Shown here: piece by piece, positions 161 through 64,000 of the stretch | Numbering within the stretch: position 1 is the first letter of the stretch | How the letters are laid out: every line of letters starts with the position of its first letter | Source of the DNA: Lingula anatina | Lineage: Eukaryota; Animalia; Brachiopoda | Reading direction: 5' to 3' | DNA length: 64,000 nucleotides | NCBI GenBank assembly: GCA_051362555.1 | Contig: CM120643.1 | Coordinates: 13,490,644-13,554,643, forward strand | The notes under the pieces: generated by a model | What the model was told of the DNA's origin: nothing | Seen by the model: only the letters and a program-made list of their open reading frames with translations | Database searches by the model: none | Program-made: the position numbers and the translations under genes

Positions 161-3100
161 GTTGGAATGCTAGAACATGTGATTACACAACCCATACAGA
201 AGACGCGGGTGTTGTATGTGACACCTCGGGCTCAGTGGGTATGGTACGCTTATCGCACGGGGAAACGACCACGACAGGACGGTTGGAAGCGCATCATGGC
301 GGGAAATGGGGTGTCGTCTGCGCAAGGTCAAACACCGTTAACGACGTTACAAACGTCGCTTGTGTCGTTTGCCGACAACTTGGACATCTAGGAGGGACTG
401 TCTTGGCGAGCAGAAGTGTGCCCTCTAACGGTGCTGTCCTCTCCGGGCTTTCATGCACGGGAAATGAAAGTGCAATAACAGACTGCACGCACGATCCCTG
501 GGGAAGTCCGTCCACAACCTGCTTTGATAGTTCTGTGAGTTTGCTTTTAAAAAGTAAAAAAAAAAAAAAAACATTTTAAGACCTGTTTCAGAAAAAATGG
601 TATCTTTCCTATTGAAAACAACATAAACTTACAATCTATCAGTGCAGATAAGAACATTATCGTGGATAATGACATCGGCATTTATAGGTCAATATTACAC
701 CCATCCGTGAAGTGAAACATTAGAATCTTTGTAAAAGGCAGCAAAATATAATTTATACATTAATCATTTTTGCTCTGTTCGATTTTCCTCTTCGTAATTT
801 TAAAAAGGGCTTCTTGTACATTAATTTTCCAGGCGATATGGATTGCGTGTGATAGAGATATCGTAACCCTGGATGGTTCCCTAAGGCTAATTGGTGGAAA
901 TACATCCAATGCTGGACGCCTAGAGATGTACTATTATGGGGATTGGCGCTCCGTAAGCAAATGACTCGCCTAATTCATTTTGCGTCACTATTAAGTGTTT
1001 CCCATGCTCTCAAGTTTAACTATCAAAATTTAATATTCATAATTTCAGATTCCGTGTTTCCAACGTTGAATAGTGGCAAATGATGCACTGATAAATCTAC
1101 GTCAAAATCTATATTTGCCAAGAAACAAAATTGAGGCAGACATATACCTTTGTTGACACAGTGTCATTTATCTGTTCTTAATTGGAAATCCCGTACTTGG
1201 TACATAATGTATAATACAATGTGATGAACATGTAATTGTATCTTATTTTAGATGTGCCGCAGCATCTGGACAAATCACAAGGCGACAAACGCCAAAGTTG
1301 CCTGCTCTCAGTTAGGGTTCGTTTTCGCGTCTAAAGAACTGACCACAGAGTTTGGACAGGGTGCAGCGATTGTTCATCTCCAAGAGGTAAGTTATAAAAT
1401 GTGCCATTTTGTTCTGCAATATATACTTCATTAAGGTCGTTTCAAAAAAGTTTTGGTAAAATTTTTCACTACTTTGTTGTGATTTTTTTTCAAAAAACTC
1501 TAAAGCACGCAAAATTTGGATGATGGACCATCATTGGTTGTATTAAGCCTTTTCTGCACTGGGTTTTCAGCTACGTTGTACTGGTTCCGAGGACAGTATA
1601 CTTGGCTGCAGTCCATCCCTGGGCCCAACACCGCCATTATCCTGTCCCCATGTCGGAATTGTTTGTGAAGGTAACTTTCACACCGTCCCACATGTTAAAC
1701 TTTTTGTGGAGTTAATGGGGAAAATAAAATAGATAAATAAAATGTGATAAAACTACCCTGCGCCTCACTCCCAAAAAGGCAACATACGCAGGCCCTCTGA
1801 ACCATTCATTTTTCTAAAATGTAATCAGGAGTCTTAATTGTAAACTGGACGTTGACGTACGGCGCGTTCCGTTTAGCGTTGTGTTCATGCATTTTACTTC
1901 GATTGCACACTATATAGGCAATATATACGTCTTTCATTGATAGCCTAGTCTGGACACATCGTGCGTTCATGGCAGTATACTGCATTTCGTTTTTGTTTTC
2001 CTTAATCTCACTACTAGCGTCATTTATTCCTGCTGAGACCTGTCAATGCTTTCCAGGTCGCCATTTTCCAAATAGCACTCGCCTGAACGACGGACAGAGA
2101 GCAGACGGCTATGAAGGGCTGTTGGAAGTTTTTGAACAGGGACGATGGTACACCGCCTGCACACAGAAGTTCACCGAGAGAATGGCGGATGTCGTCTGCA
2201 AAGAAAGGGGTTATACAAAGTTTCTCGCCTTCCACTATTTCCCTGTGATACCCTCTGCTGATACATTCGTCACCAAGGCAATTTGCACGGGTACAACAAT
2301 TGATGCTTATACCTTTGAAATAAAGTATGTCTTGGCGTACGCATTATCTCAAGCTACACGTCCTTCAAATAAACGTTCTCTACGTCACGATAATGAAGCA
2401 TCTGTTATAACTGTTCCGTCTTAAATAACATAAAATAACATAACTCATGGTCGCAAATTGCAGGCAATGAAACTCGCTTGAGCCAGTGTCCACACCACGC
2501 ATGGATTCGAATGGTAGACCATTGTGCCTCATACAAAGGCATTATATGCTACAGGCAGCCCCTGTCCCCGGAGAAAGGTACCTCGACACTAGGAGTGTCA
2601 GGCGGTGAGTATGACCAACTACGCTATCCCAAATGGATCGTTCAAAAAGAACACAAATGCTCTCCAGACATATATAATATATAGGCCATCAGGCTCACCC
2701 CTAATATTTTGAGCGTAGGTACCAATTGGGTGATCTTTGAACACCTGAGTTGATATCGCGTGAAGGTTCATTATGTCAGGATTCAGTGTTTCATCAAACC
2801 CTTTGAATATAGACAGAAATTATCATAATCCATCAATAACATTCTTGACTTACATTCTCAATATGAAAAAACTTTATTGGTTTATTTTTTGAAGAAAATA
2901 CCTCAAATTTGACCTTATGTGACCCTTGACACAATTTAACTTTACCCTATTCTCTAGAACAACCCTTAGGCTGCATAATGATTATACATTATTGCTTTAT
3001 CTTATCTTTGTTTCATATTACGGATGATATCGTTCCCAACCCAACAACCCCATATATTAGATACGGTCTTTTAAGCAACAGGGTATTAATAAGTGACCGT

Positions 3101-6100
3101 TTACATGATGAAAGCTGCTGATTTGAAACTGCTACCAAACAAAAACTGACTCCTGACCAAAACTGACTCCTGATACCAATTAGCCTCAGTTACCTAATTG
3201 GCACCAATTGGCACCCCTATACCAGATGAACTAAAACGTGCTTTGGCTGTTGAGAGAATTATCCTGTAGCAAATTTTATACACATTCATTCAGGGTATAA
3301 CATGGGGCTTTTCTTTTTTGAGACAGCTTTCGATTGGCTGCCAAGAATGACCTTGGTTTTTTTCAGGTTGCGGGGCTGGTGCCAGTACGTCAAGCGGGGA
3401 CGGCAACTCGGGCTGGCTGCAGACGCCGCTTTACCCAAACCTGTTTTATGACAACAATGTGGCCTGTATCTGGGCCATTGTTGTGCCCGTGGGATATACT
3501 ATTAATGTGCAGTTTAAAGGTAAGTGTTTACTATTGCTTTTCGCTTGATAACTATACAAGTGTCTATCATATTTTGTCCTTTTGTTAATAAATTTACATA
3601 TATTCATTTATACGTTTATTTTTCCATGTATAAAAAAGTATGATGTTCGTCGTTACTATAATTATTGTTATCATTGTACAACAATTAGTCTGCAATAGTC
3701 GGTAATAGTTCTCATCATTATTTATTTATTTATTTGTTGCTTTATTTTTGTTTCTTTTGGAATTTTGTGTTTAGGGTTATATGATGATTTGTTGTTTAAG
3801 GTGGCGATTGAATGAAAACTGTAATGCTTGTAGGGGTGGACAGATTTCAGAGTAACAGTACAATTTCTATTGATTTTTCAAAGACGGTTCGAAGACTGAA
3901 GCATCATATGATACTGTAAAGTTGTTCACAGAAGTGGAGAATTTAGCTACCCTTATCGAAACCCTCTCTGGGCCTCTGCCTAATAGTAAGTTTTGTTTTG
4001 TCTCTTACACTACCTTCATTTTAAGTATATTTGTGCTTCATTTTTCTTGTTTTTTTCATATTGTTTTAACATTTTAAAAGATGTAATTTGCGTAAAAGTG
4101 ATTTATGCGTCAGGAATATGGCATGTAACACAAAAATGAAAGTCCCCTATAGTATCTTCTTATCCGCCACAGCATCCACATGTACATCCGGCCAGTTCAT
4201 ACCTTTATTTCCAATCAGTGTGGACCAGTATTTCCATTTAGGTCATATTAAAAAAATTCGCAAACATTGTGTCCGGATTCATAAAAACATTCAGATTTAT
4301 AATATTAATATTTAATGTGAAATTCAAAGTCTCATCGCTGAAGCCTGCCTCTTCTCTAACATTTATTGTGGCCAACAGTGAATGCAATTTAAATAACAGC
4401 ATTTCAGTATTTTTGGTAGATTTGTTCTTGTTCAAGATCTTTGCCCCTCTATGTTTGTGGGAGATCATAATTTTTCATTATATCCCTATTTTAGACATTG
4501 GAACCAGTACACCATTTGAGCTAAAACTTTCTAACTACAAAATGTTCATGCCTTATTTCAAAAGCATCGTTTGACCGCATATATTAGCTGTGATTTGTTA
4601 ACTTGACCGTTTTTATAAAATAACTTCTGCTGTTTTACACAATCACTTGCAAACGTGTTAGTAAAAATACATTTAAATTGAAATATTTATATATTACTTG
4701 ATACAAGGTCGCATCCATCTTGACGCTAATGTTGCATTAGTGGAGTTTAAGAGTGATGCCTCAACGGGTGAAGTAGGATTCCGGTTGGAGTATACAGCTG
4801 TTCTACGTAAGTTCATGAGGATGAAGTAATGCTTTATCCTATGAGGGGTCATTACCAATGAAACAATCGGTCCACGTAGCTCGATCCAACTCCGCGGGGA
4901 CTCGATGAATGCCATCATATTAACGCTTTTCAGTATCCCACTCAAGGCCAAGAAAGGGCGTGTTAATGTGTGCATCTGATTGCACTCAGCGAGAGTCCCT
5001 GTGGAGTTTGATTGATCTACGTAGAACGATAGTTTCATTGGGAATGACCCCTTGGAAGTATTTTAATTGAGGTATTTATTTTTTGACTGTTTCATTTCTT
5101 TTTTATTTTCCATTGGTTGATAAAATTTAAAAACTAGCAGATGATTAATAGTTGTTATATATTTACCATTATAAATACAATCGGGAATGGCAATGCTAAT
5201 ATAATGTTTTGTTAACATTGATTGTATTGGATAATCTCCATGTACTAGTTCAAGGAAACCCTGTCAGGTTAGATATTAACAATTTTATAACAATGTATAT
5301 GCTTAGTTGCTATCAGAGTATCCTTCCTTTTTGCAGCAGATTCCAGCAATTTGTGTTTTCTTTTTTATTCACTTTCAGCGCCAAGTACACCGGCGTCCAC
5401 TTTATCAAATACGTTCAGTGTTTCTAGCCGTAATTATCAGTTTATATTTCAGTCGGTATCTTGCTTTGCTGCCTACTCGCTTGCTTTTTAAATTAGTTGA
5501 AAATTTAGCTTTTATTCTTCTGTACGTTTTTGAGTATACAGTTGTCTAAATTTTAATTCAAACGTACCTCTCGCTTTGACCACAGTTACGCCAAATTAAA
5601 GCCGGGTGACACCAGTCGAGTTTATAAAAGCACCTAGATTACCTCAGCGAAGAGAGGCGGCAATTTCGTTTGTCCCTTCTTTATACCAATAATGAAATCT
5701 GTTTACTTGTGCCACATGATACTTTTTAAAAGAATTTTAACAGTTTGAAACTAATGAAACACCTCACTGTTATTTTTATCTGCATTCATGATTAATCTCA
5801 TCTGCGCTTGACACTAGCTTTCACTTAATACCTTCTCTTTGGTACCCACTGTAGATCTGGAAAAGTGGCTCATAAATGTAAAGCAGATATACATGTATTT
5901 CTACAAGCAACATGGCAAATTTTAAATCTAAATTACAGATAAGGAGAATAGTAGGACATTTTAATTGTATAGCTTTGAAAACTTTCAACTATTTTTTCTC
6001 TTAACTATTGCGTTCTGTTAATACACAATGTCAAACAAAACACAAGCTACCATGTAATAGATATCACGAAATTAACTCATTTCCCGCATGGATATTCCAG

Positions 6101-6209
6101 CATTTAGGTAGTACCACACCTTACTTTATTAAATTAGATATATGTCACAGGGCAAGCCAGCGGGTGGCTTCTGCAATTTCAGTTGGTTATTCATAAATTT
6201 TAAAAAAAG

Positions 6210-6247
<38 letters not shown>

Positions 6248-7753
6248 AAATCCACCTGCCAGTTCTTCACAAACTTTCCAATAAAACTTTTTTCAGGCAC
6301 CACTACCGCAACTTTTCCACCCACAACAACATCACCAGGTGAAAAAGAAGGTAGGTTCAGCCGCCGTCGTTGCCTCATGGATGTTATTATCACAAAACTG
6401 TGCTTTTTCATCTACACCGTCTTTAGAAAGCTTGCCCCACATGTAGATAGACACGTTTTGGTATGATAGTTTGTTAAAAAAAATAAGAGCACCATTAATT
6501 TAACCAAAAGATTGTAATTGTTTGATTATAAATAATTACAAGTGAATTGTTTGATTATTAGTAATTATAAGTAAGATTATAAGTAATTTCTGTCTGTCAA
6601 TCTAAATTAACCATGAGCTATCCACTTTCAATTGTCGTTGAAACGATGATAGTCACATAATGTGTTTAATGTGTTTTTTTTTGGTAACTGAAGGTTCTGA
6701 GAGTGGCAAGCTGGTAGTTGCTGTAGTGGTACCGGTGGTTGTGCTGGCAGTGGCAGGAACCATAGTAGTCGGGCTGTGGCTCTTTTTGTACAAAAAGAAA
6801 GCTGCAAACAATAAGTATGTATTGCACAGGATAGGCGTCAATAATTTGAATATTAGATCACTGATATGTTATTTTACTTCCAACATATTTGTGCGTGCAG
6901 AAGAAAGTTGAGTAGGCATACAATTTATATAAATAGTGTGCAGTTACAAAGGGTACCCATGTTTTTTTTACAAATAGTTCGTAATTATCACAGTATGGGT
7001 ATTACCATCTCACTCACTCCAGTTCATTTCCAATTTCTAAGTGGTAGGTTCAGCAGTCTGCTTAATCTACGCGACAATGAAGTTAGGCCATCGTCAGCGT
7101 CCAGCACGGCTAGTCAACTATCGGTAGCCCCGCAGGAAGTGATGCCCCAAGCCTCACCTACATATAACAGTCTAACTTTAACCTCCACTGGCGACCATAT
7201 GTACACAGGCCTGGATGACGGTTATGCCCGTCTTCATAATTCAGGTCAAGGTCAAGGACATTACGCCACTTACCACCGGGATGGCAAACCTCGACTGGAG
7301 TCTGCTAACTACGATGACTTCTATGCTCAGATACCTCCAGCTGCTACAAATTTTTCATATTCCACCGATCATTCGCGTAATGTAACCGTCTCTGAAGACA
7401 AGGATGAAAGAAATAGCCATTCTGGTTCATGGGAAAATCACGCATTTCAAGTTGGTGGAGCCTCTGGAAGTCCTGGTGACATCCCTAGTCAGTTTTTGTG
7501 TCCAATCACAGGCAGTCTTATGAAAGACCCCGTTACTGCAAGTGACGGTTATACATACGACAGAGCAGCAATAACACAGTGGCTCAGCGGGAGTAGACTG
7601 TCGCCTGTTACAACCATTCCTTTGTCCAGTCAGAACTTGGTGCCAAATGATCGGTTGCGCAAAAGTATGGCAACGTGGCGGTCTAATAATCAGGGCAGTC
7701 GCATTTCACTGAACTCACGTCCTTGTACACCTATGACTGATGTAGAAGCATGA
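161..7753 (+). CDS. Multi-exon SRCR(n>=4)-CUB-S/T stalk-TM-Tyr motifs-U-box protein (scavenger-receptor-like membrane E3 ligase); 5' end lies upstream of window
   Basis: GT-AG exons in continuous phase: 161-534, 833-952, 1252-1386, 1571-1670, 2057-2290, 2464-2604, 3367-3519, 3884-3985, 4708-4806, 5379-5429 (less sure), 6297-6350, 6694-6814, 7042(or 7048)-7753. SRCR motifs: HTEDAGVVC, VRL..G...GRLE..H.GKWGVVC, LRLIGG...AGRLEMYYYGDW, CTGNE..L..C.H..W. CUB motifs: GWLQTPLYP..YDNNVACIWAI, YDTVKLF, VEFKSDAS..EVGFRLEY. TM LVVAVVVPVVVLAVAGTIVVGLWLFLY followed by KKK. U-box IPSQFLCPITGSLMKDPVTASDGYTYDRAAITQW..SPVT...L...LVPNDRLR. Confidence 0.85.
4845..5051. mobile_element. MITE with long terminal inverted repeats (family A, copy 1)
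   Basis: Starts GGGGTCATTACCAATGAAACAATCGGTCCACGTAG and ends CTACGTAGAACGATAGTTTCATTGGGAATGACCCC (imperfect TIR); related copy at 23221-23348. Confidence 0.75.
7478..7681 (+). other. U-box domain coding region (terminal exon of receptor gene)
   Basis: DIPSQFLCPITGSLMKDPVTASDGYTYDRAAITQWLSGSRLSPVTTIPLSSQNLVPNDRLRKSMATW matches the U-box consensus P..F.CPIT..LM.DPV...DG.TY.R.AI..W.....SP.T...L....L.PN..LR..I..W. Confidence 0.95.
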
Positions 7754-9310
7754 TAATTTATAACGCAATTTTTAGCCAGATTAAAATGTAAATGAATGTC
7801 ATATGGAAGTGCCGTTTAATGGCCTGGGGATAAAAACTTGGGTTTAAGGCCTATCTCGGTTTCAACATTTTCTCTTAAAATCAATTCAATCCAAGTACAC
7901 AATGTCAAATCACCAAAACATTCATTACAATGTATATATTCGTTATACACTGTACATAGTCTAGTATTCCACCTTGCCAGTTAACTGATCCAGAAGGTGG
8001 TGAATTCAACCAGTGCTTGTTGAGGTTTTGGATCTCTGTCTTGACACTCTGTCCACCATTCTGTCTTGCCAAGCAACGGAACCAGCAGGTAAATTGCGCC
8101 AATGTTTGTTGGGGTTGCGTTGCATCTTGTCTTCTATGGAAGCTCTGTTGGGTGCCGACTTCTACAGTGTTGGCAAGGTTTTGGCCCCTTCCCCGTGCTC
8201 CAGACTTCCAGTAATTTATAGGAATATCACAATTACAAATACTGATATTTGAAGTGTTTGACACCAATAAAATCTCAGAAACAATTCAATAAGCGAAGCA
8301 CGCGTGCTATTTTGGACTAATACAATTACTGATATTGGTGAGTAGTGTTTAGTCTCATAATAACACACACTGAGGAAGGTGGCTGTGTGGCCGAATGCTT
8401 TGTTTCTGCTTTTTCATTTAGTGTAGAAAATGAAACGTTTAAACCTATGATTATCGTCGAAAGACAACACAAATTTTTTTATCAGAAAATTTACTTTATT
8501 ACTGAATTACTCTCGTCGCAAATAATAGCCTCGAAACTAACGGTGATATTGCTATTAGCGCTCAGTGGCAAATTGCGATGCCTTCGAATTACGCAATAGC
8601 GACGAATCGCCATGCTTGCGCTCTGTCGCAATTTGCAATGATTTCGAGTTGTGGAGCCCCTGGTCTCGCCCCGACAGCTCATGGTCGTCTTCTCCGCCTA
8701 CTTCTCCGCCTCTGGATCAATTGTTGGATTTGGACAAGTTGATAGTTATGTTGTTGGATTGCAGCAACAATCAGACGGCGTCTTTGGGGTTCCATGCTGG
8801 ACTTAGACTGACAACGATGTCGCTTTCTGCCCGATTTATACACCAGTTTTGGTGTATGTTAAGCGGTCGTTATCCATCGCTTATTGTTTACAAATCGGAC
8901 GCAACACAAACGCTTTAGCTCGTGATGGGGAAGCTCAACATAACGGATTGCATACTTCATACATACTCTTCCAGATCGCTAGCAACCCGCAATTACCCGT
9001 GAGTTGCGGATAAGAGCCGATAACAGCGCATGTATTGCATATGAATTGCGGATATTGCGCATGACGTCCGAAACCCAAATATTATGCAGCTCAAAACCCC
9101 CTGGAACGGAAAAATTGCCTCAGCGGATAATTGCGGACGTATGCAGGTATTGGCCGACTGATTCATGTACAAGCATTTATCACGAATATTTGCGGAGGTT
9201 TAGCGAATATCAACCAATTTTGTGCGAAATTCATGCGCATTTCATCCTAAACGCCAATGGGGCCGGGCCTTTGCAAGACATAAAGAACCGTAGCTCTGGG
9301 TCGAAAAGAT

Positions 9311-12152: not shown

Positions 12153-13169
12153 TCACAAAAAGGAAGTCGAGGTTCTTGCAGTGCTTTGGTTCGTTGGTCC
12201 AGAAAACCGCCGTTTGAACGCAGCCCTGAATTCTGTGGAAACAAAATTATACAGAATTGGATTTAAACATGAATTGGTGACCGGAAGCACCTGAGACAAA
12301 AAATGAAGCCAGAACCAAGCCCCTTTCGGACACACAGGATTATATACCTGTGCTATGAATAAGATATAGAAGAGGTAAAAATCTCCCCAGCATACAACGA
12401 AGAGCACTAAGACGGCGAAAACGATGGCTGTTAGTCGTCGGGTATCCGAAGGGGACATTCCGGCGGGCGCTGAATCTTCTGAGCCAAGGGCAGCTGCGAT
12501 AGCGCGTTCCTGTTGGCGGATAACCACCATGATTCCAATAGAGAAAGAACCGATTACCAAAACGGGGAAGATGAAATCCAGGCCAAATACTAACACGTAG
12601 AAGAAATGTCCATCAGCATCTGTCATGTTCTGTGACAGACCACAAGATTTCCCTTTGCTTTCCTCGAAATAAAAGAAAAGTGGAAAATTTGCTATTATCA
12701 TTCCAACCCATACTAGAGCTGCAACCTTCGTCGTGAAGCTCTTGCTGACAAAGTTTTTGCAATGCAGGGGCCATTTAACAGCCACGAACCGTAGCGCGCA
12801 TATAAAAACTAAACAATATACACTAACCCCTTGAGTGGTGTACACGAAAAAGTATGCAATTTTACACACCGGCGGCGTTAAGGAGACTCGGTATTCTGTT
12901 GCGAAGCGTAACGCTTGTACTGGGAGACAAATGATCAAGTAAAGCAAATCGGCAACGGCAAGATTTAAGAATAAAACGTTCAGTCGTGTTGACTTGCAGA
13001 TCACCGAAATCACCAAGCTGTTGCCTATCACTCCTATGACGAATATTATCGAATAAATCAATGGCAAACCGATGACTACAATATGGGACTGAATAAATTT
13101 AACTTCCCCGCGACAAAAATATGTATCATTTTCTCCCATTCCATTTATGTCATCAGTTTTGTTTTCCAT
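12153..13169 (-). CDS. Intronless class A (rhodopsin-like) GPCR, neuropeptide-receptor-like (galanin/allatostatin-A receptor-like), atypical motifs
   Basis: Seven hydrophobic helices. GNSLVI (TM1), LAVADL (TM2), conserved TM3 Cys and ECL2 Cys, TM4 W, TM5 FP, NSCLNPILY plus helix 8 (EFRAAF). N-terminal sequons NKT and NDT. Start taken at MENKT; upstream in-frame ATGs exist. Confidence 0.9.
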   Translation of the reverse strand: MENKTDDINGMGENDTYFCRGEVKFIQSHIVVIGLPLIYSIIFVIGVIGNSLVISVICKSTRLNVLFLNLAVADLLYLIICLPVQALRFATEYRVSLTPPVCKIAYFFVYTTQGVSVYCLVFICALRFVAVKWPLHCKNFVSKSFTTKVAALVWVGMIIANFPLFFYFEESKGKSCGLSQNMTDADGHFFYVLVFGLDFIFPVLVIGSFSIGIMVVIRQQERAIAAALGSEDSAPAGMSPSDTRRLTAIVFAVLVLFVVCWGDFYLFYILFIAQVYNPVCPKGAWFWLHFLSQVLPVTNSCLNPILYNFVSTEFRAAFKRRFSGPTNQSTARTSTSFL

Positions 13170-14279
13170 TTCTATTAAGATTATTGTCATTAATGTCATA
13201 AAGTTAGTGTTTTCTTTTTCGTGCTGTTGAAGCAATTTTCTCTAACACCGCTCAACAATTAGAGTTAAATTGGAAAATTTGCTGGTTTCTTTTCCAGAAC
13301 AGTTTCCATCTCTGGTCGAAGCGCTGTCCAATGCTGCCAGCTGCATTATGATGAAAAACAATTAGTCAGGACTCTGGACCATCGTGTGCAGCCATTTTCT
13401 GACTTTTTCAATAATTTCATTTTACCTCGTTGTTCCTCTCATTTCTCTCTCACAAAGCATGATATTACTAACTGTGTAGAGTTTACTTAAAATTTCAACA
13501 ACTTGTCATTTGGTCTTCGCCGCAGTGTATTCTTTCTTTGCGTGGCGCTTTAAGATTTTCCGATATAAGTCTTCTGCCTGTTTTGCAAAAATTAAGAGGC
13601 AATAATTTCTTTAATACTGACACCAGCTTAACACAAACAGTGCGAGGGTCGTTAACCACAATCGGATAGAGTTACTCAGCTCTCGATTTGAGGCCTATCA
13701 TAACTTTATTGCCGTCCTGTTTGCTTAAGAGTCGAAACCCCAATATTATAGTATTTTGTAAAAGCAAACAGACCGCGGCGATTGTCTCCATTATTTGAGC
13801 CAGTAAGTAAAACTTCATACAAATTAATTTCACGGTATCTCCGCCGAATGTTTACGGTTGCCAGGTGAGCCTCCGCTCTGCCAAAGGTCCTCAGTTCCAC
13901 TCCCGCCAGATTAGAACGAACGCTCCACTGGCATCATCTACCCCCATCGCTTGCCACGTAGCAATTATGATGGACACATGGATAGAAAGCGTCTAAATAG
14001 AGCTTGGTATAATGTCATTGATGTCAAATAGCAGCCGCTATACGCATGCGCCAGACGAGACAATGTACTGACCTATGGCAAAAATCGTATTTGCCATGAG
14101 ACTTCATGGTGGTCCTTAGAAATATATTGACTGTAAACCTGTCTGCAGACATCACGGTTCGCATGGCAATATATTAGATCAATTTATAACTAAAGACCAT
14201 GTCTGGAGCCAGCAATTTAAAGAAAGGGGGGGGTCTTTTTTATTATTACTATTTATTCACAAGGACAAGTATTAATTTT

Positions 14280-15246: not shown

Positions 15247-15888
15247 TTAACTGAATATATTGCAATATTGCCTGAGGTGATTTATGATGTTGAGGAGGAT
15301 AAATAGTTTCTGATCACTCCCTGCTAATTCATAATTGTGTCTCTCTGTATTTGGGAGGGAATTGAGCATGCTTTGTCGCTCTGTTTGGTACTTGCTGCAA
15401 GTGAGGAAGAAATGTTTCTCGTCCTCTATTTCTGTTTTACAATGTGTGCAGGTTCTTTCCTCCAGAGGGATTTTCATGTTGCTGCCTTTCTCTATCGCCA
15501 CCTCATGGTCACTTATTCTCATTTTGGCATTGTATTTTTTGTCTGAGCTTGTGGCACTAATTTTTGAGTGTTTTTCAAAATCGTATGAGTTTTTTAGTAT
15601 TTTTAAATAAGTGAGCAGGTTATTGTAGTTTTCCTTGCACAAATCTTCCCAAAAGAGACCTTCAGTTTTTAGGTTTATTTCTTTTTCTAGGTCAGATGTT
15701 TCATCCCAATGTTGAATTCCCCAATTCTGTCTAAATGTCGCCACCGCTTTAATCCAAATATCTATCTTCATGAGTTTCTCTTCGTTAAATGTTTGTTTCA
15801 ATATTCTTATATTTGGAAGATTTATGGGTCTGATGTAGTATTTTTGCACGGATTTAATTATACAACATTGGTCAAAAAGGTTGTCCAA
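15247..15888 (-). mobile_element. 3' fragment of non-LTR retrotransposon (LINE) ORF2, post-RT C-terminal Cys/His region
   Basis: MRISDHEVAIEKG...PLEERTCTHCKTEIEDEKHFFLTCSKYQTER matches the typical R.S.H.L.IE.GR...R.C..C...EDE.HF...C..Y...R LINE C-terminus. Confidence 0.8.
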
Positions 15889-16207
15889 CCTCCAGTATCA
15901 TGTGCTTTCATTTATAAATGATCACATTACTGGTGAAAATTGTTATAAATAGTTGTTTTCATTCCAGATACTATAACTAACATGATTAATGGTACAGAGA
16001 ATACTAACTAACAGTGAAGATATTAATATTTAATACCATTTATTCACATTTATTACATGTGCTCCCTCAAATCCAACATTTCACTGTGATTTTCACAGAG
16101 GTAAATGAATATCGATAAAATTGAATAGACACCACCAAATTTCACACACATTTAGCATTAGGGTGTGCTCGTTAAAGATCACGTGTCCAATACCGTTTGT
16201 GTCCACC

Positions 16208-16439: not shown

Positions 16440-16777
16440 TATCTCCTGTAGGCGACGCGGCCTGCCTTCAACAAGGGTTACAATTCTGTTTTGTGGGATA
16501 TTGCCCCATGTTTCCTAAAGAGCTTGGGGGAGTTGGTCCAGATTATTAGGAGTTTGGTTCTCCTTTGCAGTGCACACTCCAATTCATGCCACAGATGCTT
16601 AGTAGGGTTAATAACAGGACTAAAAGATGATTGCTCCATCCTCTGAACATTGGGTTTCTGCAACAAATTACTCAGTAGACGAGAGCTATGTGCAAGTGCA
16701 TTTCCACGATGATGCCTGCAGTATTCCTGAAAACATCTCTTGCAGATAGAATGACATATTTGTTGAGAATGTTTCAT
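16440..16777 (-). mobile_element. Degenerate Tc1/mariner transposase C-terminal fragment
   Basis: SPVINPTKHLWHELECALQRR resembles the Tc1 SPDLNPIEHLW.ELK motif; GNALAHSSR resembles DNA..H.SR; frameshifted. Confidence 0.75.
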
Positions 16778-16944
16778 AGAATTGGCCCATTTTGGTAGGT
16801 CGCTATTTTCCTCGAGTAAGGAAATTCACCCCGAAACCGAAGTGCTTTTTGATGTGACAGCATAATCTTATTAATGAAAAATGTCAATTTCCGCACTGTC
16901 TGAGCGGATTAAAGGAAAACAAACTAAGAGAGTTTTTTTTAATT

Positions 16945-17284
16945 CAGGGGCAGATTGAGACCGTCTTCTGGGTTTTCCGGAAGACGGTCAGATTTTAAAG
17001 TTTACATTAACGGGTATCTATTTTTTCTGTTTTAAGACCATTAAAAATGGCGGATGGATCAACAAAGATAATTTGGAATACTGTCAGAAAATATCTCTGG
17101 ATCCGCTCCTGTCAGGGGCGGATTGAGACCGTCTTCTGGATCTTCCGGAAGACGGTCAAATTTTTAAGTTTACATTGACTTGACGGTATCTATTTTTTTC
17201 TGTTGGAATACCATCGAAAATGGCGGATGGATCAACAAAGATAATTTGGAATATTGTCAGAAAATATCTCTGGATCCGCTCCTG
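16945..17284. mobile_element. Head-to-tail pair of ~170-bp MITEs (CAGGGGCGGAT...ATCCGCTCCTG)
   Basis: Copies at 16945-17111 and 17113-17284 are nearly identical with short TIRs; an internally deleted third copy is at ~48053-48161. Confidence 0.8.
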
Positions 17285-18222
17285 ATTAATGTCAGGGAGG
17301 TGTGCGTCCTTTTTTAAGTTAAAGGTTCATGCCTATAGTAATAGGGTAATAATGATAAAATTAATCGATTTTAAGTCTAAAATTATTAACTCTAAAATTA
17401 GTATTAGCCACGACGCTGGATAGCATGGATGGCATTTGGGTGATTTTCTAAACCCATGGCGTGTACCTTTAAGGTTGAATTTTTTGTAGTTACTTTTAAA
17501 AAAATAACTCACTATTTGTTATCATTAATAAAAAAATCTATTTAATGCCATTTGAGTTTATAAAAAAAAAAAACAAGTTTGATTTCATAGATATTGGGTC
17601 TCTTGTTAATAAATGTTTTTAACACATGCAAAATAATGAATGTAACGTATACTCAGCTTACACAAAGTCTTAAGAAAACGTTATCCTAACGTTCTACACT
17701 GCCACTGTCATTATCATTGATCCTAGAAACTAGTGGCTGAATACATATTGGGTTGGAGTGAGTCGGCGACTATAGAGCAATGAGGATTTTAGAGCCCTCG
17801 GGCAGTCGGTACTTACCCGAAATTATAGACATGATGAAAAGCTTTTTAAAAAAACCTGTAAAAGTAGACTTCAATTATGTTATAAGGTTTATCAAAATTA
17901 TTAAAAAGGTGTTTTCTAGTTATCCTGATAGTTGACTGGCGTTTGTGATGATTTAATGGATTGTTTTAACTTCATTTTAGAAAATTCATTCTAATAAATT
18001 CCCTACAAGGTCAGCTAACACAGGAGTAGTGAAAAGGTTTAGCAGTGACTTGTCCGAAGCAAATAAGATTAAATAGCACTCCACGGTCACGTGATTGACA
18101 AATGGGGGATTCCATTCAATTGGAGGGGTTTAGTGGAGAAAATCCACTCAATCTGAGGGATGTCAGGTGGGGCGACTCCATTCCAAATAAAGGGGTGTTA
18201 TATGGGCTAATTCCATCCCATA

Positions 18223-22074: not shown

Positions 22075-64000
<41,926 letters not shown>

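Follow-up and report, generated by a model that had tools for sequence, protein, structure and literature searches.

A gene with the layout of a membrane receptor fused to a ubiquitin ligase domain lies at one end of a 64,000-nucleotide stretch of the genome of the brachiopod Lingula anatina (assembly GCA_051362555.1, contig CM120643.1, positions 13,490,644 to 13,554,643 of the forward strand). This whole stretch is referred to below as the window, and its coordinates are used throughout. The gene occupies positions 161-7753, and all of its features are on the plus strand. Scripted exon joining gives 13 exons, all with GT-AG borders and compatible phases, which read through 797 amino acids with zero internal stops. 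They encode tandem SRCR domains, a CUB domain, a Ser/Thr-rich stalk, a single transmembrane (TM) helix followed by KKK, and a cytoplasmic U-box. An earlier note, made from the letters of the DNA alone, had described this chain, and both the exons and their domain content are confirmed. One detail needs adjusting. The note counted at least four SRCR domains, and tandem SRCRs are indeed present, but the gene starts upstream and only its 3' half is in the window, with three complete SRCRs and the last part of one more (the full protein has five). The joining of ectodomain, TM helix and U-box in one chain is very probably real, since a Lingula paralogue and anthozoan relatives carry the same layout.

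Exon structure and Lingula copies

In the numbering of the full protein, exon 1 of the window (161-534) finishes SRCR2 and encodes most of SRCR3 (Pfam SRCR, E 2e-15 for this exon alone), the earlier exons being upstream. Exon 2 (833-952) ends SRCR3 and starts SRCR4, which continues through exon 3 (1252-1386; E 0.08 when scored alone) and closes in exon 4 (1571-1670). SRCR5 is divided between exon 5 (2057-2290; E 1e-8 alone) and exon 6 (2464-2604), the latter also encoding a linker. Of the CUB domain, the first part is in exon 7 (3367-3519; E 1e-5 alone), the middle in exon 8 (3884-3985) and the end in exon 9 (4708-4806). The stalk is Ser/Thr/Pro-rich in exon 10 (5379-5429) and Thr-rich in exon 11 (6297-6350). 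Exon 12 (6694-6814) encodes the TM helix (about 6711-6791), the one outstanding hydrophobic helix (Kyte-Doolittle 3.0 versus 1.7 for the runner-up), with KKK directly after it (6792-6800). Its donor at 6814 is in phase 2, and the acceptors at 7042 and 7048 both lead into the U-box frame, as the earlier note had held. The entire cytoplasmic tail is encoded by exon 13 (7042-7753, stop at 7751-7753), which contains a complete U-box at 7481-7693 (E 3e-19, 69.2 bits against a cut-off of 21.4, model positions 1-72 of 73). An ATTAAA 27 bases past the stop (7780-7785) is a candidate polyadenylation signal. Other splicing was considered at exon 5, where the donor at 2324 looks stronger than the weak-looking one at 2290. 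An exon set with donor 2324 and without exon 6 breaks the frame; a 2324-2483 join is likewise open, but the RefSeq model backs 2290-2464.

A search with the last exon led to two L. anatina proteins, XP_013382414.1 (P0002) and the product of LOC106153451 (P0001/P0015). The former is the RefSeq model just mentioned. It is identical to the window model at 659 of 666 residues in a gapless alignment, so every window join is used there, including 2290-2464 and 6814-7042. With so high an identity, it must come from this locus or from a closely similar copy of it. The latter is a paralogue, 64% identical across all 797 residues and continuous from the TM helix to the U-box. Between the window gene and the paralogue, the SRCRs are 74% identical and the U-boxes 72%, the tail linkers 47% and the stalks 20%, while the last 20 residues reach 90%. 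The higher value for the U-box than for linker and stalk suggests that the U-box is under constraint.

The last 20 residues (7691-7750) form a conserved motif, with 18 of 20 the same in both Lingula proteins. This motif is missing in anthozoans, whose ends are a PDZ-type motif. A further Lingula record on another scaffold (P0014, 351 amino acids, a partial model named 'neurotrypsin-like') sits in the 90% cluster of the paralogue and may represent either a fragment of an allele or a third copy. When the paralogue U-box served as query in a region-limited homologue search, only the paralogue itself came back (1 of 13 candidates).

The rest of the window contains several other features. A single-exon gene for a rhodopsin-family G protein-coupled receptor (7tm_1, E 2e-36) lies at 12153-13241 on the minus strand and has essentially no reads in a set of four RNA runs. 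A spliced gene on the plus strand, at 22135-25878 and 55773-63017, has a Pro-rich and Arg/Asp-rich exon and shows four GT-AG joints in 4/4 RNA runs of that set; it has some likeness to virilizer/VIRMA, with Pfam blank on five single exons. A minus-strand frame of 287 codons (40788-41651) begins with hydrophobic residues, contains another hydrophobic helix and has an acidic tail. It has no Pfam family above the cut-off and may nest in an intron of the 22135-63017 gene. Finally, a reverse-transcriptase-like remnant on the minus strand (15247-15897, a weak zf-RVT match) and short repeats at 16740-17394 and 4976-5053 all gather many partly matching RNA reads.

The cytoplasmic tail

CPI, Trp, SP and PN are all retained in the U-box of the window gene. 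An alignment with OsPUB12/CIE1, taken from an E2 complex, shows that it also retains the Ile, Trp and Pro that we take to face the E2, and the Trp and SP loop are kept in 21/21 U-boxes of the family. The best AlphaFold model of the domain has a predicted local distance difference test (pLDDT) score of 94 and superimposes on the U-boxes of CHIP and GmPUB13 with template-modelling scores of 0.91-0.94 and a root-mean-square deviation of about 1 A; Ufd2 and plant U-boxes are matched as well. A single-sequence fold of the whole of exon 13 was uninformative (pLDDT 31). The linchpin, which we place at Pro+3 and assume to be canonically Arg, is Asn in 19/19 anthozoan U-boxes and in 76 of the 77 WDSUB1-like matches checked. 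Overexpression of WDSUB1 in cells is reported to give more ubiquitination of USH2A (PMC10238197).

The U-box stands about 160-235 residues away from the membrane, and the intervening tail contains short motifs of several kinds. At 7154-7174 the window copy has a degenerate PY-like SPTY, continuing into YxxL, where the paralogue has PPPY, its one PPxY. An acidic GYxxL motif at 7214-7234 is a candidate endocytic or SH2 signal, these being the roles of tyrosine motifs of this type, and the window copy has five YxxPhi motifs in its tail. Two PPxY and one FxNxxY are present in 8/8 anthozoan tails checked (full-length or TM-bearing), and a class I PDZ-type end is found in 13 of 19 anthozoan records, which are not independent of one another. 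PPxY motifs bind NEDD4-type ligases, YxxL and FxNxxY serve in endocytosis, and PDZ-type ends in scaffolding. The PPxY motifs therefore suggest that NEDD4-type ligases may be recruited as well. This, with the Thr or Ala at the linchpin of the two Lingula U-boxes, makes it doubtful that, as the earlier note supposed, the receptor would work without an adaptor.

Relatives in anthozoans and the age of the family

In the full-length model, a signal-like N-terminus is followed by MAM-SRCR-LDLa-MAM-LDLa-MAM, four further SRCRs, CUB and TM, with totals of 3 MAM, 2 LDLa and 5 SRCR domains. MAM and LDLa domains make up half of the ectodomain. The signal region was assessed by hydropathy on the RefSeq model only; together with the single TM helix and the basic residues after it, it points to a type I topology.

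SRCR, CUB and U-box domains are found in one chain in seven more database clusters (Desmophyllum, Montipora, Acropora, Orbicella, Stylophora and two Logan records) and in the Nematostella protein P0345 (LOC5514231, 1876 amino acids). The order MAM-SRCR-LDLa-MAM-LDLa-MAM-SRCR-SRCR-SRCR-WSC-CUB-CUB-TM-U-box holds in all six corals parsed and in Nematostella. One record, P0053, is a frame of 1906 amino acids on a 6103-base Logan contig; this contig is taken to be an assembled transcript, which would prove the fusion indirectly for a coral-like source. From MAM1 to SRCR4, nine domains have the same order and near-equal linkers in Lingula and in 4/4 anthozoans aligned, with 34.5-35.3% identity over about 1050 columns including linkers (76-90 gap columns). 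Beyond this block, Lingula has a fifth SRCR in place of the WSC domain of the anthozoans, and one CUB rather than two.

The earlier note knew of no described SRCR-CUB-TM-U-box protein. However, the coral survey of Neubauer et al. (2016) lists MAM-LDL-MAM-SRCR-CUB-TM-UBOX for A. digitifera CUB2 and A. millepora CUB1 (PMC5119243). The Acropora matches of the present analysis are of the same kind as these 'SRCR + CUB' UBOX proteins. In the portions of the survey that deal with them (one sentence and two table rows) they are named DMBT-like only, without a function, a ligase role or non-cnidarian members (PMC5119243). A literature search, with subscription journals mostly outside its reach, returned no functional study of the family and no mention of it outside cnidarians.

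A second trace of the family is found in the survey of animal U-box genes by Marin (2010), which recognises seven main genes and a 'lineage-specific' Nematostella orphan, Nv_UBOXa (XM_001634368.1), described there as having no similarity beyond the U-box (PMC3087547). A Nematostella protein of 223 amino acids, XP_001634418.1 (P0279), is identical at 222 of 223 residues to the end of the receptor P0345. Given that XM_001634368.1 and XP_001634418.1 are, as we assume from their numbering, the mRNA and protein of one record, the orphan is probably the tail of this receptor and has a bilaterian counterpart. The new points are that the family has a member in a brachiopod, that this member is colinear with those of anthozoans, that the Nematostella orphan can probably be identified, and that the tails carry the motifs described above; the design itself was already in databases and in one table.

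The nine-domain block, in the same order and at about 35% identity, together with the TM helix and U-box in corals and Nematostella, argues that the family is older than the cnidarian-bilaterian split. A single origin before that split is the simplest reading and a quite probable one, although the domain trees do not prove it. MAM1 groups by position in its domain tree (87/85), and in the SRCR score matrix SRCR2 alone sorts by position. Some results leave common origin unproven. MAM2 and MAM3 fail to group by position, the U-box tree separates Lingula from anthozoans (without support), and the window linker fits the anthozoan linker profile no better than 186 of 500 shuffles. Furthermore, no family member was found outside Lingula and hexacorals, but WDSUB1 and proteins with tandem U-boxes took up much of the output of these searches, so the result is no evidence of absence. 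One of the homologue searches covered the best 120 of 1908 matches. In a profile search of 1.84 billion representatives, swamped by tandem U-box proteins, only the paralogue (P0001) had an ectodomain match to local profiles among the best 150 checked; this search added Nematostella and two tail fragments. The ESM Atlas gave no usable match for the paralogue (P0015) and, for the Acropora tail, only generic CUB clusters below 0.9.

Alternatively, Lingula and anthozoans may share only the ectodomain, the U-boxes having been gained independently or the tail replaced in one lineage. The separation in the U-box tree and the scarcely aligning tail linkers would fit this history, as would the lack of WSC and of a second CUB in Lingula. 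Coral tails also seem, from exon-like fragments, to have an intron just before the U-box, while the Lingula tail is a single exon. Yet the U-box tree was built from 53 hand-picked rows of 326 and 73 columns, its bootstrap not settled, and 73 columns are too few for resolving such a tree. An approximately unbiased test leaves a single clade of Lingula and anthozoan U-boxes standing (p 0.274). The paralogue linker, with its PPPY, fits the anthozoan profile better than 498 of 500 shuffles, the other two being as good, and for one ectodomain to acquire this rare domain twice would take more steps than a single gain. On balance, separate gain of the U-boxes appears quite unlikely, and a single origin is preferred.

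Apart from this family, a JGI record of 983 amino acids (P0216) combines a cadherin-like domain, one TM helix and two U-boxes, and is apparently a separate membrane U-box design.

Possible function and its alternatives

The reading favoured here, with a slightly better than even chance of being correct, is that the protein is a receptor-type E3 ligase. It would capture a ligand or membrane partner outside the cell, ubiquitinate itself or that partner inside, and drive endocytosis and lysosomal decay. From what is known of their families, the MAM, LDLa, SRCR and CUB domains would bind the ligand or partner, and the U-box would recruit an E2 and ubiquitinate the receptor or the partner. The tail motifs (YxxL, FxNxxY) may then route the complex to endosomes or lysosomes, with possible help from NEDD4-type ligases at PPxY and, in anthozoans, possible scaffolding by the C-terminal PDZ-type motif. 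Turnover of this kind has precedents: RNF43/ZNRF3 clear Frizzled in a ligand-regulated manner, and MEGF8-MGRN1 likewise clears receptors (10.1101/2020.05.25.113944).

A signal-like N-terminus, an ectodomain, one TM helix and a cytoplasmic ligase domain are present in one chain, as in receptor-type transmembrane E3s, and the likeness to RNF43/ZNRF3 extends to the RING superfamily of the ligase domain. RNF43 and ZNRF3 have a PA ectodomain and a zinc RING close to the membrane, whereas the Lingula protein has a large multi-domain ectodomain and a U-box far from the membrane; no PA or RING family was found above the Pfam cut-off in it or in the relatives scanned. MEGF8-MGRN1 and ATRN-MGRN1 similarly couple a large single-pass ectodomain protein to a ligase that acts on a membrane partner, but their RING ligase is a second polypeptide recruited by a tail motif, while the Lingula protein carries its ligase domain, a U-box, in its own chain. 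Of the annotated animal U-box proteins, WDSUB1 turns up most often in the best 120 of 1908 matches (about 50% identity) and shares the linchpin Asn with the anthozoan members. In contrast, it is a soluble WD40-SAM-U-box protein, no WD40 or SAM domains precede the U-box in the scanned proteins, and the U-box tree does not put the receptor U-boxes within WDSUB1. DMBT1/SALSA and CD163 also have tandem SRCRs, DMBT1 has a CUB, and the coral proteins are named 'DMBT1-like' in databases. They differ from the present family in the MAM and LDLa domains, the long tail with its U-box, and a cation site that appears largely lost in Lingula. DMBT1/SALSA is defined by an SRCR array, CUB and a C-terminal ZP domain (PMC5119243), and ZP gave no Pfam match in the proteins scanned.

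A number of observations count against the reading as a receptor-type E3. The RefSeq model XP_013382414.1 departs from the reading frame at 7355-7359 and ends before the U-box; this form is either a wrong record (assembly error) or a genuine ligase-less allele. Only one of five AlphaFold models of the U-box is confident, the other four having pLDDT below 50. The linchpin is Thr in the window copy and Ala in the paralogue, and in tests on Hrd1/Doa10 Ala worked far less well than Arg (PMC7667886). The window copy has SPTY in place of PPxY, and lacks FxNxxY and a class I PDZ end. Eight of nine RNA runs of the same species label were mapped to the window; exons 12-13 had no covering reads in 8/8 runs, the junction from 6814 to 7042/7048 was unseen, and near exon 5 a single run reached a depth of about one read. 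The neighbouring gene at 22-25 kb shows its GT-AG joints in 4/4 runs of one set. This suggests that the runs come from a related population, in which the receptor gene is silent or too divergent. If the RefSeq form is a natural allele, it could serve as a decoy.

Three other explanations were weighed. In one, the U-box has little or no activity and acts as a dock for E2, ubiquitin or a dimer partner; ubiquitination would then be left to NEDD4-type HECT ligases on the PPxY motifs, in the manner of adaptor-type membrane proteins. The Thr or Ala linchpin and the U-box-less RefSeq model would be in keeping with this, as would the conserved PPxY pairs of anthozoans and the single PPxY of the paralogue; moreover, the U-box-like domain of IFT172 binds ubiquitin (PMC13290226). 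However, the core E2-facing positions, including the Trp and SP loop, are retained across the family, and the window copy has kept its U-box though its PPxY is lost. Linchpins other than Arg are also common among active RINGs, about half of RINGs being without Arg there (PMC7667886). We regard an inert U-box as rather unlikely. Far less probable is a second explanation, in which the receptor stops after a short tail and the U-box exon belongs to an alternative transcript or to a gene of its own. The U-box frame does stay open for 62 codons 5' of the acceptor, the longest such extension among the 13 exons (others 0-54), and it contains an ATG; the missing junction reads are of a piece with this. 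Nevertheless, intron 12 is just 227 bases long and contains neither AATAAA nor ATTAAA, the RefSeq model employs the 6814-7042 join, the paralogue aligns through the junction, and the anthozoan relatives are fused, including in transcript-sized contigs.

The remaining alternative, an immune pattern-recognition receptor, is close to what the earlier note had inferred. The SRCRs would bind microbial surfaces, and the U-box would build signalling chains or mark phagosomal cargo. The SRCR and CUB domains themselves agree with this, as does CD163 being the best sequence match in the PDB for the full-length model. There are 113 SRCR genes in Lingula, and genes of this type tend toward expression in digestive tissue (PMC10855680). 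Anthozoan SRCR2 and SRCR4 retain several acidic residues of the cation site, more than Lingula does. The acidic GYxxL motif is akin to hemITAMs. On the other side, SALSA binds its ligands via D1019, D1020, D1058, D1059, N1081 and E1086 (PMC7043408); by a mapping based on spacing, Lingula SRCR2 retains 3 of these 6 residues and is the only one of the five SRCRs with the Asp-Asp pair, which SRCR1, 3, 4 and 5 lack. Furthermore, the domain order is stable across phyla, unlike that of fast-shuffling immune SRCR expansions. Microbial binding is possible, yet it is not indicated for most of the Lingula SRCR array, and with half of the ectodomain made of MAM and LDLa domains pattern recognition is at most a putative role. 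An immune receptor is considered unlikely, and a receptor-type E3 acting in turnover is preferred.

Fused receptor-ligases are few, and the signals under their control are strong ones: Wnt in the case of RNF43/ZNRF3, Hedgehog in that of MEGF8-MGRN1. If the proposed role is correct, a U-box receptor-ligase with a large scavenger-type ectodomain would be a new kind on this short list, and the first characterised animal transmembrane U-box E3. The Nematostella orphan of 2010 would turn into a family, and the count of ancient animal U-box genes would have to be revised. In databases this family is concealed by names such as 'MAM and LDL-receptor class A protein', 'neurotrypsin' or 'DMBT1-like', and the U-box is dropped from the RefSeq model of the locus. 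A wider idea can be put forward only tentatively: an overlooked U-box receptor-ligase may have existed in the cnidarian-bilaterian ancestor, have been kept in hexacorals and brachiopods, and have been lost or missed in model animals, with ligands from outside the cell, be they microbial, from a symbiont or endogenous, directly switching ubiquitination at the membrane. Corals and Nematostella are a tractable system for this family, which would be a candidate link of surface recognition to ubiquitin sorting in symbiosis or gut uptake.

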